Shown here: one piece after another, positions 12,176 to 38,964 of the stretch
How positions within the stretch are numbered: the first letter of the stretch is position 1
How the letters are laid out: each line of letters starts with the position of its first letter
Source of the DNA: Botryllus schlosseri
Lineage: Eukaryota
Assembly (NCBI GenBank): GCA_051294905.1
Contig: CM119371.1
Coordinates: 8,310,001 to 8,374,000 of the forward strand
Direction: 5' to 3'
Length of the DNA stretch: 64,000 nt
Notes under the pieces: model-generated
What the model was told of the DNA's origin: nothing
Databases searched by the model: none
Seen by the model: the letters and a program-made list of their open reading frames with translations, nothing else
Made by a program: the position numbers and the translations under genes

Positions 12176-12738
12176 AGTAGTGTTATGGGTATCGTTTGTT
12201 ACGCACCAATCCCAGAAGGCCACGTCGCCTTAATTGCCACGCCTACATTGGCACATCATCCGCCCATTGCCGCACCTACAGGACACCCATTGCCACGTTA
12301 CTTGCCGCACCTATAGCATGCCCATTGCCACATCAGCCTATTGCCACATCATCTGCTACGTCATCTGCGCCACATCATCAAGCACCATGCCTATAGTGCC
12401 ACATCATCCATTGCCACATCATCACTGCATTGATTGCCGCATCTATATGACGCGCAGCAGCCCGTCAGCCAGCGCGATGTCGATTGCTGCACCTATGTCA
12501 CTCATTGCCACATCAAAACTTACCTAAGCTAGAATCGAACCTGGCTTGTTTGGGTATAATTTCACGTCGCTTACCACCAGGCTATTGAGCAAACTAGCCG
12601 TATTGAGCTGTTTTGAGAATATAACCGCCGATTCTCTCTTAAATTCCGAGACAACACCTTTTTCGAGTAATAACACATAAATGTAAAACTATAACACCTG
12701 TGTCATCATTAATTAGTCAATTATTTCAGGGAATTCTG
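12176..12738 (+). repeat. Left terminal inverted repeat of the outer Polinton
   Basis: Reverse complement of ~38383-38964; nearly identical to ~12650, then diverged; contains repeated (A/T)TGCCACAT and CATCATC motifs. Confidence 0.95.
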
Positions 12739-12750
12739 CAATGTCTCCTA

Positions 12751-12890
12751 ACACTTTACTCAGTCTCATTGAAATAGCATTGTATAGTGTATCAGTTCAT
12801 TTTATTTCGAAAAAATAGCATATCAATGATATCGTTGATCGTTATTGCGTTGATTCGCGTGCTGAAATCCTCCAGATCGATTGATGTTTC
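12751..12890. repeat. ~140-bp direct repeat copy 1 (3' end / polyA module of a minus-strand unit)
   Basis: Diverged copy at 14366-14503; TTTATT on + gives AATAAA on - just downstream of the ORF stop at 12823. Confidence 0.8.
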
Positions 12891-13305
12891 TAGGTACACC
12901 GCTTTGCTGCCATCCGACACTTCGATCCGAGTTCTTTCGTTCGATCTGACCGTTTTGTTTGATGTAGCGATCACTGGCTTGTAGTATATACGATACGAGC
13001 GGAAGGTCGGGATTAGGAACAACTACGCTGGGCGAATAGATGACAAATTCATCAGCTGGATTCAGAGGTTGATAATGCTCGATCCCGTCGCGAGTATACG
13101 TAAAGACCAAACCTCCTTCATGCTTCAGAGTGGCTCGATATTTCTGAATGGCCCCGCTTGTGGAATGTACAAAGAGTTGATCCGAGGTCAATTCTGCTCC
13201 ATTCGAGGCTTCGATACGTAATTTTGTGATGTCATTAAAAAGATACAAGTCTTTTCTATAGGGCCCCTTGGCCAGAATAGTATCTCCACGGATTGCTAGA
13301 CTCAT
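12823..13305 (-). CDS. Hypothetical element protein (~160 aa from MSLAIRG; ORF open up to 13368)
   Basis: Long ORF directly downstream of the IAP gene on the same strand, followed by AATAAA; no recognised motif. Confidence 0.55.
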   Translation of the reverse strand: MSLAIRGDTILAKGPYRKDLYLFNDITKLRIEASNGAELTSDQLFVHSTSGAIQKYRATLKHEGGLVFTYTRDGIEHYQPLNPADEFVIYSPSVVVPNPDLPLVSYILQASDRYIKQNGQIERKNSDRSVGWQQSGVPRNINRSGGFQHANQRNNDQRYH

Positions 13306-13321
13306 TCTTTGAAAAGAAATA

Positions 13322-13903
13322 TCAAACATAAGTACAACAGTCATCACGCAATTCCACCTCGCCATCAAATTTAGTCGAGCCTCTTCTTATATTAGGTGTC
13401 GCATAACAGACATTACGAATATATTGCAACCCCTTCCGCTTGATGAGAAAAGGACACGCAGGATAAAACTTTGCATGCTCGAACCAGGGATCATCGCACG
13501 GCAACCAATTTTGAAACAGCCCTCCGCACGAGAAACACTTTAAATGATCCTTATAGCCCAAATAGAACAATCCGCAGTCTGCGAGCTCGGCTCCGGAGGT
13601 ATTTATATTATCCGGCCATCGCATGAATGTGCTTAGTCTACGAGCATACCGTGTCATGTTATAGAAAACTGGATCATTCAGCGGGGAGACAGTTACATCT
13701 CTATGCTTCGCATAGCATTCATAAATCTTTTCCCCTCTGTTATTTATCATAGCTTGGTACTGTTCAATGGGACCCATCCGAGTTTCATCTTCGCTTATTT
13801 CTATGCTACTTGTGGTACCGGTGCAAGCGCAGTTGAATGTAGCGTAATTTGTAGGATCCATACTACGCTTAGGTAGCGAATCGCTTTGGTCAATGTTCGA
13901 CAT
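13322..13903 (-). CDS. Inhibitor-of-apoptosis-like protein with a single BIR domain, no RING
   Basis: RLSTFMRWP...ELADCGLFYLGYKDHLKCFSCGGLFQNWLPCDDPWFEHAKFYPACPFL fits the BIR consensus with C-x2-C-x16-H-x6-C zinc ligands. Confidence 0.95.
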   Translation of the reverse strand: MSNIDQSDSLPKRSMDPTNYATFNCACTGTTSSIEISEDETRMGPIEQYQAMINNRGEKIYECYAKHRDVTVSPLNDPVFYNMTRYARRLSTFMRWPDNINTSGAELADCGLFYLGYKDHLKCFSCGGLFQNWLPCDDPWFEHAKFYPACPFLIKRKGLQYIRNVCYATPNIRRGSTKFDGEVELRDDCCTYV

Positions 13904-13940
13904 TGCTATCCGAATTGATATACTCTCATGATCAGTATGC

Positions 13941-13946
13941 TTTATA
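13941..13946 (-). promoter_or_regulatory. Candidate TATA box of the IAP gene
   Basis: TATAAA on the minus strand ~38 bp upstream of the ATG at 13903. Confidence 0.4.
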
Positions 13947-36100: not shown

Positions 36101-36348
36101 GACACAATAGCCGCTCGCCACCACACCCATAAGACACAATAGCCGCTCACGACCCCCGCCATAAGACATAAAAGCCGCTCACCACCCCCGGTTTTCCAGC
36201 CGCTCACGACCCCCGCCATAAGACGCAATAGCCGCTCACCACCCCGCCATAAGGTATAAGGAGCCGCTCACCACCCCCGGTTTTCAGGCACCTCACCACC
36301 CCGCCCATAAGAACCCCTGCCACCGGTTGAGCGATCATAATAACTACT
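30136..36348 (-). repeat. Right arm (6213 bp) of the giant inverted repeat
   Basis: Reverse complement of 22912-29157. Confidence 0.97.
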
Positions 36349-36354
36349 TTCGCT

Positions 36355-37043
36355 CCTACAGCAAACGCAGCTTACATTACGGCGGTACTGAACATCGAGT
36401 GATAAGCGGGACTAGGCAGGCTACCCTTAATGCGAATTTGCATTTTGCTGGTACAATCTATGCTATAGTTGAGCGACTTTGATACGACCTCAGCACACTT
36501 CTTTGATATAGCTGCGCAACGATCTAGACTTGAACGTCGGCGTCTGGGACAGATGTGATGTTATAGCCCGCAGTTGCATAGCGTTTTAGGAGGTAAATTA
36601 TAGCATAGGTTATAGATTTTATTCACAATCGGAAAAGCATCAGTTCACTAACTATTAAAATCACATATCTAAAAGCAGCTTATGGACTAGTGGCTTCATA
36701 TTATCATCATCTAGCAGGAGCCAGGAATTTGTATTGAGTGACTTCGTTCCTATAGCCCCAGCAAACGCAGCTTACGTTAATACGGCGTTACTGAACATCG
36801 AGTAATAAGCGGGACTAGCCAGGCTACACTTAATACGAATTTGCATTTTGTGGGTACAATCTATGCTATAGTTGAGCGACTTGAAATGATACGACCTTGG
36901 CATACTTCTTCGATATAGATATAGCTGCGCAAAGATGTAGCCTTGAACGTAGGCATTAGGTACAGATGTCAGTGATCTGAAATGTTACAGCTTCAACCCG
37001 CAGTGGCTATTAAAATCGCATATCTAAAAGCAGCTTATGGACT
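36355..37043 (+). repeat. Diverged ~350-390-bp tandem duplication in the outer element; unit 1 (22851-22911 + 36355-36687) is split by the nested element, unit 2 is 36688-37043
   Basis: CCAGGAATTTGTATTGAGTGACTTCG, CAGCAAACGCAGCTTAC, TACAATCTATGCTATAGTTGAGCGAC and AAAAGCAGCTTATGGACT occur in both units. Confidence 0.85.
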
Positions 37044-37222
37044 TGTAAAATCGGCATAATGCAAATCTACACGGAAATGTAGCCTAACTCACCTGCATCA
37101 TCAGGAGAAGTGTATAGCGCGATAGTTGTGACAGAAATGTGAAATTTTCCGAGCGTAAATTGCGTATGCAATGTCGGCGTTTTGATCTGAAATGAAATGA
37201 ACGAATTTAAATATAGGCGATA

Positions 37223-37255
<33 letters not shown>

Positions 37256-38382
37256 CTGTTGCTCTAGCTAATTAAATAATTCATAATATTGTAAGCACAC
37301 TGCGCGAAACGAGTAATAAGTGGGACTAGGGAACTTGCATGTACATACGAATTTATACGAATTCGGTCATATCCTCGCTTAACATTATAGCCGTGCACAG
37401 AACTCATTATTACGTTATTAGCTATTTAAAATGATGCGATATAGGTGAAATCTCGATGTAATTCAATCTGTGCGTATTATCCATGTATGCTCCAATACGT
37501 TTTGCAGCTTTAGTATAGGTATTGGATCTAATATATTCTATAAAACATCTACGTTGCTATATATATATATATATATCTTAATCCGGAGTGCATTGCTGCA
37601 TCGAAAAATTATAGCTATATGCGGTACGCTGTCGATTTTTCAATATAGACAAGAAATAGCCCACCTTTAGTGTTGCGTAATCTGGCTTGTCATTATATGC
37701 TTGTAACTAGTTCCGGCTTGCGCTGCTAGTCTTCTTACCTGCATGAAATATAGGATGTTTTAGCTTCAAACTCGACGCATTAGCATGCCGAATTTGTAAC
37801 CACAGCGAGATTCGAGTATTAAGCGAGGCTAGATAGTCTACCCTTAACAGAGAACTTGCATATACATTCAAATTTATGCGACTTCGGCTATATTGCTGGT
37901 TAACATTATAGCCGCGCACAGAACTCATTATTACGTTAGCTATTGGAGAAATCTCAACGTAATTCAATCTGTGTGCACAATCCACGTAAGCTAATGCTGC
38001 ATCGAGAAATTATAGCTACATTTAGTTTAAATTGACACGAAAATACATTGATCTTACCTTGTCTGCGATGGCTACCTCGCTGCGCACATACTTGTAATAG
38101 AAATGCGAAGTTTTCAGAATGCGAATTGCTTTACGTCGGAACTAAACATTCTAATTCGTATCGCCAACGCGGCATTTTCTTGGAAACGCAACTTTATTTA
38201 TAATGTTCTAATTCACTATGTCGATGTGTCGCGACTTCTTGGAATCGTAAGCAACTGTATTCGTGGCACATTTACACGCGTCAATTTCTTGGAATAGTAT
38301 TCGGCAATATGCGCGGCGCATGAGCTTTGCGTGATCGTAGGCCTTTATGGTTGCGATATCTGTATTATCAAGTTGCATTTGA

Positions 38383-38964
38383 AGAATTCCCCAAAGTCAT
38401 TGACTAATTAATGATTACACAGGTGTTATAGTACACACGAACATAGTCTTACATTTATGTGTAATAGCTCGAAAAAGGTGTTGTCAAGTCTCGAAATTTA
38501 AGAGAGAATCGGCGGTTATATTCTCAAAACAGCTCAATACGGCTAGTTTGCTCAATAGCCTGGTGGTAAGCGACGTGAAATTATACCCAAACAAGCCAGG
38601 TTCGATTCTAGCTAAGGTAAGTTTTGATGTGGCAATGAGTGACATAGGTGCAGCAATCGACATCGCGCTGGCTGACGGGCTGCTGCGCGTCATATAGATG
38701 CGGCAATCAATGCAGTGATGATGTGGCAATGGATGATGTGGCACTATAGGCATGGTGCTTGATGATGTGGCGCAGATGACGTAGCAGATGATGTGGCAAT
38801 AGGCTGATGTGGCAATGGGCATGCTATAGGTGCGGCAAGTAACGTGGCAATGGGTGTCCTGTAGGTGCGGCAATGGGCGGATGATGTGCCAATGTAGGCG
38901 TGGCAATTAAGGCGACGTGGCCTTCTGGGATTGGTGCGTAACAAACGATACCCATAACACTACT
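38383..38964 (-). repeat. Right terminal inverted repeat of the outer Polinton
   Basis: Reverse complement of 12176-12738; ends ACTACT followed by the TSD CATGGA. Confidence 0.95.

Follow-up and report, generated by a model that had tools for sequence, protein, structure and literature searches.

We analyzed a 64,000-nt stretch of the genome of the animal Botryllus schlosseri (contig CM119371.1 of assembly GCA_051294905.1, positions 8,310,001 to 8,374,000; hereafter the window). Positions 12176 to 38964 of the window hold an integrated Polinton/Maverick (adintovirus-like) provirus, which is real and recently inserted. Its packaging, capsid, protease, and integrase genes are open, and its protein-primed DNA polymerase (pPolB) gene is reduced to a decayed stump of 74 codons joined to the 3′ end of a Bcl-2 homolog. 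We propose, with a probability of roughly two in three, that the provirus represents a pPolB-deleted Polinton lineage whose polymerase was already dead at integration, whose core genes were under selection, and which was replicated in trans.

Termini and organization of the provirus

The provirus, here called the outer element, is bounded by terminal inverted repeats (TIRs) at 12176–12652 (plus strand) and 38488–38964 (minus strand) that are 100% complementary over 477 nt. The likeness weakens inward but extends to about 12741 and 38379 (593 nt at 94%). The left TIR starts AGTAGTG and contains subterminal short repeats and a 16-nt tandem repeat at 12320–12351. Both copies of a 6-bp target-site duplication (TSD), CATGGA, can be read directly, at 12170–12175 and 38965–38970. 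Polinton termini follow the rule AG...CT, and those of the outer element read AGTAGT...ACTACT. These ends are integration-competent.

The first-pass annotation of the window had described both TIRs and a perfect 6-bp TSD, and both hold. It had also treated 12176–38964 as a single span; the outer ends of that span are real, but half of it (22912–36348) belongs to a second element, nested in the first and flanked by a TSD of its own. Without the nested insertion, which is later than the outer provirus, the outer element measures 13,352 bp.

Gene content was compared with L001, a complete TIR-bounded viral contig of 12,321 bp. Its gene order is small open reading frame (ORF), 1164-aa ORF, ATPase, two small ORFs, rve/chromo integrase, penton, small ORF, major capsid protein (MCP), and C5/C48 protease; the 1164-aa ORF contains the polymerase motif-like stretches DINNLYG, KLMNNSVYGK, and LFTDTDS. 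The ATPase, integrase, both penton-like, small basic protein, MCP, and protease genes of the outer element align to L001 genes at 21 to 43% identity with their order kept. The ATPase, integrase, two penton, capsid, and protease ORFs that the annotation had listed as uninterrupted all align nearly full-length to their syntenic counterparts. Its maximum ORF length of 425 aa is likewise correct, as the whole 64-kb window has no longer stop-to-stop frame.

A polymerase stump directly upstream of the ATPase gene

Database, tblastn, and profile matches identify positions 16307–16528 (plus strand) as a pseudogene remnant of the pPolB C terminus. The remnant comprises 74 codons, with two stops in frame and a gap of 3 codons, and finishes at the natural pPolB C terminus, 6 nt before the ATG of the ATPase gene. 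When it was translated with the two stops read as X and searched against 5.8 billion proteins, the search for longer relatives returned a single protein, P0284, a 1300-aa pPolB encoded on an 11.7-kb contig (E 1e-17). The remnant is identical to P0284 residues 1225–1300 at 45 of 76 positions, with one 3-residue gap, and the alignment stops exactly at the C terminus. A tblastn search of the 64-kb window with P0284 found the remnant alone (E 2.8e-19; next best, 1.1), as did a two-sequence profile of the P0284-type polymerase run against the six-frame translation (E 4.5e-20; next best, 3.7). The remnant also matches the pPolB C terminus of a related locus, L041 (27 of 77 residues identical, E 6e-12), whose polymerase is of the same type and lies directly upstream of the ATPase gene. 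With the L001 polymerase as tblastn query, the best match in the window was 16481–16516, with 11 of 12 residues identical, and a profile built from 60 P0163-lineage pPolBs gave a weak best match at 16307–16516 (profile positions 1023–1098 of 1108, E 0.66–1.2). The decisive match came from the P0284 lineage, which is another lineage than that of P0163.

No catalytic pPolB motif or domain was found in the window by tblastn with P0163-lineage, P0284, and L041 pPolBs or by the two six-frame profiles. The same tblastn and profile searches gave no pPolB signal in the nested element or in the right arm of the outer element (36355–38487), which has no recognizable genes and contains an internal 200-nt direct repeat. 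The annotation had reported pPolB as missing, which is right for catalytic motifs and domains but overlooks the C-terminal remnant; the tBLASTn and HMM check that it proposed for 12176–38964 yields no full pPolB but does yield the stump, at the two E values given above. The degenerate pPolB that it had envisaged at 36355–38383 or in the nested arms is in neither place, and one is present at 16307–16528 instead. This remnant refutes only the idea that the element never had a polymerase. It leaves the annotation's own readings in place, and the deletion derivative that it suggested is borne out by a pPolB stump at the syntenic position upstream of the ATPase gene.

A Pfam scan was made of 165 of the 171 stop-to-stop ORFs of at least 45 aa listed in 12176–30140 and 36200–38964. 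The other six comprise three ORFs of the right TIR, the ORF at 12176–12313, and two from the nested arm's duplicated end; the second nested arm, 30141–36199, lies outside the scan and is a 99–100% copy of the first. The scan found no polymerase among the 165 ORFs. This negative result is uninformative for pPolB, because P0163 and P0284, clear animal-type Polinton pPolBs, have no Pfam DNA_pol_B_2 match even at E ≤ 1. Pfam-based calls of "no polymerase" in such elements are thus unreliable, and lineage-specific searches are needed. The scan of the 165 ORFs also detected no domain of a replicase of the type used by Polinton-like viruses (helicase fusions, primase–polymerase).

One edge of the deletion is the end of the Bcl-2 gene and the other is near polymerase codon 1224, with the join at about 16307–16310, where the 5′ edge of the remnant abuts exon 2 of the Bcl-2 homolog. 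All of pPolB except its last 74 codons was removed, and the stump was joined to the 3′ end of the upstream gene. The stop codon of exon 2 (16318–16320) sits in the first pPolB-derived codons; since polymerase-derived sequence supplies this codon, the deletion made the present 3′ end of the Bcl-2 gene. The position of the remnant, syntenic with pPolB genes of relatives, indicates descent from a pPolB-bearing ancestor through a deletion of ~1224 codons. In adintoviruses, accessory genes that include Bcl2 and IAP homologs reportedly lie upstream of PolB (PMC8502044), and a single internal deletion therefore suffices for the join.

Several features of an autonomous Polinton are present in the outer element: an rve integrase, long TIRs with a 6-bp TSD, a double-jelly-roll MCP, and an ATPase together with a protease. 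Its pPolB consists of the final 74 codons with two in-frame stops, and the window has no catalytic motif. Features of a replication-defective derivative are also present, namely, family-type ends with a TSD, loss of an essential enzyme gene, and a pPolB stump at the syntenic place. The outer element is best classed as a defective derivative rather than a full Polinton.

Polymerase loss relative to integration

The stump has three lesions in 74 codons. The seven genes that have L001 homologs total 1745 codons and have none (Fisher p = 6.5e-5 for the three lesions together and 0.0016 for the stops alone). No difference separates the TIR arms over their 477 positions, from which at most about 0.7 changes are expected in the 222-nt stump since integration. 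From the upper bound set by the TIRs, the probability that three or more lesions arose in that time is at most 0.034. This asymmetry, together with the identical TIRs, suggests that pPolB was most likely already a pseudogene when the outer copy integrated. The core genes would then have stayed open under selection while the stump decayed, as expected of a helper-dependent lineage. The annotation had offered helper dependence as its other reading; it is compatible with a deletion derivative, and the dead stump, the 1745 intact core codons, and the identical TIRs point the same way.

The competing history is that of a one-off dead end, in which a complete Polinton inserted and a local deletion then removed its polymerase, the other genes being intact merely because the insertion is recent. 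Perfect TIRs and intact remaining ORFs do indicate a young copy, and internal-deletion variants of the family are present among the reads of other sequencing runs (for example, joints 13028→14626 and 12293→18702). Against that history stand the two stops and the 3-codon gap in the remnant, set beside no change at 477 TIR positions, and also contigs that span the deletion junction in a run with a different organism label. We regard such a dead end as quite unlikely.

The latter contigs come from a survey of sequencing runs, in which 24 to 65% of the sampled words of 12900–22890 occur in each of 20 runs, drawn from 9 studies and three organism labels; no RNA run was listed among them. Contigs of four runs were aligned to 11600–23400; their depths were not taken as copy numbers. 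In run X2, which has a different organism label and study, record 20 spans the Bcl-2/stump join (15891–16344) and record 21 covers 16315–18789, through the ATPase gene into the integrase gene. The assembly of the window is therefore not alone in showing the deleted form. The left flank (11600–11993) is barely covered in X2 (0.22) and was not used to argue for a separate insertion. Two further observations in X2 are hints only: record 21, which starts at 16315, is deeper than record 20, and record 24 ends at 22911 with 14 further letters.

The same contigs bear on the possibility of an artifact, with the polymerase missing or the structure wrong through misassembly around a large palindrome. 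The nested element is a 13.4-kb near-perfect palindrome, a classic assembly hazard. However, it is not an assembly fold-back, because it has AGTAGT/ACTACT termini and a 6-bp TSD of its own. It also lies 183 nt past the stop codon of the protease gene, breaking no gene and distant from the pPolB breakpoint, and independent contigs from other runs bridge the Bcl-2/remnant/ATPase region. An artifact of this kind is highly improbable.

Related loci

An alignment of the MCP yielded one locus among viral contigs. An alignment of the integrase drew 62 metagenome loci, which with L001 make 63 related loci. Ten of them have the ATPase gene upstream of the integrase gene and at least 1 kb of sequence before the ATPase gene, and these formed the synteny set. 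Five of the 10 (L001, L010, L012, L023, and L041) have a pPolB immediately before the ATPase gene.

Polymerases of the P0284 type occur in other settings among the relatives. A frame of 1804 aa in L041 (2–5416), open at the 5′ end of the contig, terminates in one, and in L061 (4937–7193, minus strand) one lies behind the protease gene on the opposite strand. A P0284 search of viral contigs gave no match. In L062, a BIR-like stretch (853–1155, minus strand) adjoins the integrase gene.

Proposed replication in trans

The sequence of events begins with an ancestor in which accessory genes were followed by pPolB, ATPase, two small ORFs, integrase, penton, MCP, and protease. An internal deletion stripped pPolB to the 74-codon stump and joined it to the 3′ end of the Bcl-2 gene. 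The polymerase would have been dead before integration, with the packaging, capsid, protease, and integrase genes kept by selection. Such a replication-defective lineage would rely on its own virion proteins for packaging and on its own integrase for insertion. For its linear, TIR-ended genome it would need protein-primed replication in trans, most likely from a co-resident Polinton that encodes pPolB, and the result would be a satellite or defective-helper relationship.

Mobility might instead be independent of any polymerase of this kind, with the integrase alone moving the element, by cut-and-paste or with copying by host polymerase, without a helper, and with the capsid serving horizontal spread. 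Consistent with this, the integrase is intact and has a chromodomain, and the gene-less nested element moved too, with a 6-bp TSD; moreover, a preprint on polB-less polintons leaves their mode of mobilization open (10.1101/2025.02.07.637071). On the other hand, a packaged linear genome with TIR ends needs end replication, which is pPolB-primed in related viruses (PMC11161782), and the outer element has no alternative replicase among the 165 Pfam-scanned ORFs. We consider polymerase-independent mobility unlikely and favor replication in trans.

A stronger form of the replication-in-trans reading would be a stable "satellite polinton" lineage of animals, with its own capsid and integration functions, which has dispensed with the polymerase, carries anti-apoptotic cargo (Bcl-2 and IAP genes) in its place, and parasitizes the replication of a co-resident Polinton; the outer copy would then not be a decaying one. 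We put this forward tentatively, at somewhat less than even odds. If true, animals would have their own equivalent of the virophage and satellite relationships known from protists and phages.

A number of points weigh against a helper-dependent lineage. To our knowledge, Polinton transposition has never been reconstituted, and the need for pPolB is itself a model. No pPolB element with the same termini was found, the TIR-end pattern being present in 0 of the 63 related loci. By tblastn and with the two profiles, no pPolB was detected upstream of the ATPase gene in the other five of the 10 loci of the synteny set (L025, L031, L034, L039, and L051); L031 and L034 are visibly decayed and the gene order of L039 differs. 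The "canonical" pPolB–ATPase order is thus not universal, and the architecture of the family is variable; ancestry is fixed by the window's own stump. The closest pPolB, just 59% identical to the remnant, does not reveal the ancestral sequence. The argument from age counts three lesions only, and p = 0.034 is modest; gene conversion, instead of youth, could also have kept the TIRs identical. Preservation is good over the final 31 codons of the remnant (25 of 31 identical to P0284), which could reflect a younger deletion or a constraint such as a promoter of the ATPase gene. Finally, the X2 contigs could derive from the orthologous locus and do not prove an independent insertion.

Polintons are regarded as ancestral to several groups of eukaryotic DNA viruses, and we know of no direct demonstration of their replication and movement. 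The outer copy is a clean natural replication-defective Polinton, seemingly under selection, whose stump can be dated against the remainder of the element. With it the helper question becomes testable, namely, which polymerase-encoding element in the genome has matching ends.

Comparison with known elements

Relative to animal Polintons/Mavericks (adintoviruses; Starrett et al. 2021, PMC8502044; Krupovic et al. 2014, PMC4028283), the outer element is alike in its TIRs, 6-bp TSD, and core genes. It keeps the core order of L001 and has its Bcl2 and IAP accessory genes upstream of the polymerase position, whereas its pPolB is a 74-codon stump and its penton gene is doubled. By definition, Polintons all encode pPolB and integrase (PMC5499653).

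TIR-flanked polintons that lack polB, keep the other hallmark genes, and are apparently active have been described in the butterfly Pieris mannii in a 2026 preprint (bioRxiv 10.1101/2025.02.07.637071). They coexist with very similar polB-bearing elements, and their polB loss is accompanied by a LINE or Gypsy insertion. In contrast, the deletion reported here abuts a putatively spliced Bcl-2 homolog, and a dated polymerase stump persists; the host group and the polymerase lineage also differ. Polintons without polB are therefore already known, and the value of the present one is that it is unusually clean, its breakpoint being pinned and selection after the loss being supported from within the element. 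In the literature searched, we found no description of a polymerase stump fused to a Bcl-2 gene.

Non-autonomous Polintons have long been known. Those of Repbase (Kapitonov and Jurka 2006) reportedly arose by internal deletion, keep the TIRs of their family and 6-bp TSDs, and rely on autonomous elements. Most or all of their genes are said to be gone, as in the nested element, whereas the outer element has lost the replicase alone and kept the virion and integration module.

Polinton-like viruses and virophages, most of which have no pPolB (PMC11161782), have the morphogenetic module in common with the outer element. They have replicases of their own (S1H/S3H helicase fusions, primase–polymerase, or PolA) and mostly lack an rve integrase, whereas the outer element has an rve integrase, no replacement replicase detected by Pfam in the 165 ORFs, and a pPolB ancestry marked by its remnant.

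Virion, packaging, and integration genes

All genes of this module are on the plus strand. The ATPase gene (16535–17152) encodes a 205-aa FtsK/A32-type packaging ATPase (Pfam Pox_A32, 8.6e-9) that shares 43% identity with its L001 counterpart across 199 aa (E 3e-55). Two small ORFs of 138 and 129 aa, stop to stop, occupy 17071–17926 between the ATPase and integrase genes and have no Pfam match; L001 likewise holds two small ORFs at this place. The 332-aa integrase (17914–18912) is of the retrovirus type with a C-terminal chromodomain (Pfam rve, 2.2e-14; Chromo, 2.5e-8), and its full-length alignment to the L001 integrase has 39% identity (E 1.7e-80).

Two penton-like (minor capsid) genes follow in tandem, at 19072–19881 (269 aa) and 19878–20600 (240 aa). 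The first is homologous to the single syntenic L001 gene (24% identity, E 2.3e-11), as is the second (E 4.7e-6). The two are distant paralogs, 19% identical to each other (E 3e-12), and neither has a Pfam match. L001, L010, and L012 have a single copy at this place. The next gene (20578–20949), whose position is conserved, encodes a small basic protein of 123 aa with 33% identity to L001 8852–9295 (E 2.8e-11).

The 425-aa MCP (20999–22276) was assigned to the double-jelly-roll class with AlphaFold2 and Foldseek. Its model has a pLDDT of 87.9 and a pTM of 0.85, and the top Foldseek matches are the capsid proteins of Sputnik, SGIV (an iridovirus), PBCV-1, and mavirus (E 2.3e-16 to 2.2e-14). A search of 1.84 billion representatives yielded 4636 MCP relatives at E ≤ 1e-3, nearly all of ~430 aa, and MCP-like proteins in Atlas clusters fall mostly in animals. 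One MCP relative, P0001, is 79% identical. The last gene of the module (22273–22728) encodes a 151-aa maturation protease of the adenain/Ulp1 type, 34% identical to the L001 protease (E 1.9e-14). The L001 protease matches Peptidase_C5 and C48, and that of the window has no Pfam match.

In run X17, whose RNA label is a guess, contigs join 16657 to 18987, 19116 to 21603, and 21652 to 22534. The skipped stretches have CT..AC ends, equivalent to GT..AG on the minus strand, and the joins look like spliced antisense transcripts across the virion module.

Accessory genes of the left arm

The Bcl-2 homolog is encoded on the plus strand in two putative exons. Exon 1 (15479–15949; 157 codons; Pfam Bcl-2, 1.3e-20) ends in NGGW and is followed by a GTAAGC donor; exon 2 (16201–16320), preceded by a TTTCAG acceptor, supplies the remainder of BH2 and a hydrophobic tail anchor. 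The splice from 15949 to 16201 is predicted from the splice signals and the reading frame. Cellular Bcl-2 genes have an intron at the equivalent position. The closest solved relatives of the protein are Mcl-1 and Bcl2-like 10 (2e-10).

An IAP-like gene with one BIR domain (Pfam BIR, 3.4e-18) lies at 13322–13903 on the minus strand. Both this gene and the Bcl-2 homolog belong to a type of cargo known among adintoviruses. A variant of the left arm lacks the IAP region, passing from 13028 to 14626 (1597 nt skipped) with six other letters at the joint; contigs of X1, X2, and X5 carry it, and a similar joint occurs in X17.

Two further ORFs lie on the minus strand. One of 180 aa (187 aa stop to stop), at 12823–13365, has no Pfam match and no tblastn match among the 63 related loci. 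The other, of 95 aa (14682–14969), has no Pfam or PDB match and no Atlas match above 0.79; a paralog in the unique loop of the nested element (29209–29502, minus strand) is identical at 51 of 87 positions (E 3e-39). The 95-aa ORF may be an exon of a gene common to the outer and nested families.

The nested element

The nested element (22912–36348; 13,437 bp) also has AGTAGT...ACTACT termini and is flanked by the TSD TTCGCT at 22906–22911 and 36349–36354. It has no core genes, and the ORFs of its arms have no Pfam match. Its arms of ~6.2 kb are 100% identical over 5285 nt (outer part) and 98% over a further 839 nt (inner part), and they enclose a loop of 978 nt. Terminal tandem repeats of 32, 89, and 121 nt and internal repeats of 21 and 41 nt are also present. 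Since this gene-less element has AGTAGT ends and a 6-bp TSD of its own, integrase action in trans occurs in this genome. The nested element probably represents a high-copy non-autonomous family of the Polinton type. In all four runs compared, summed contig depth peaks in its end region.

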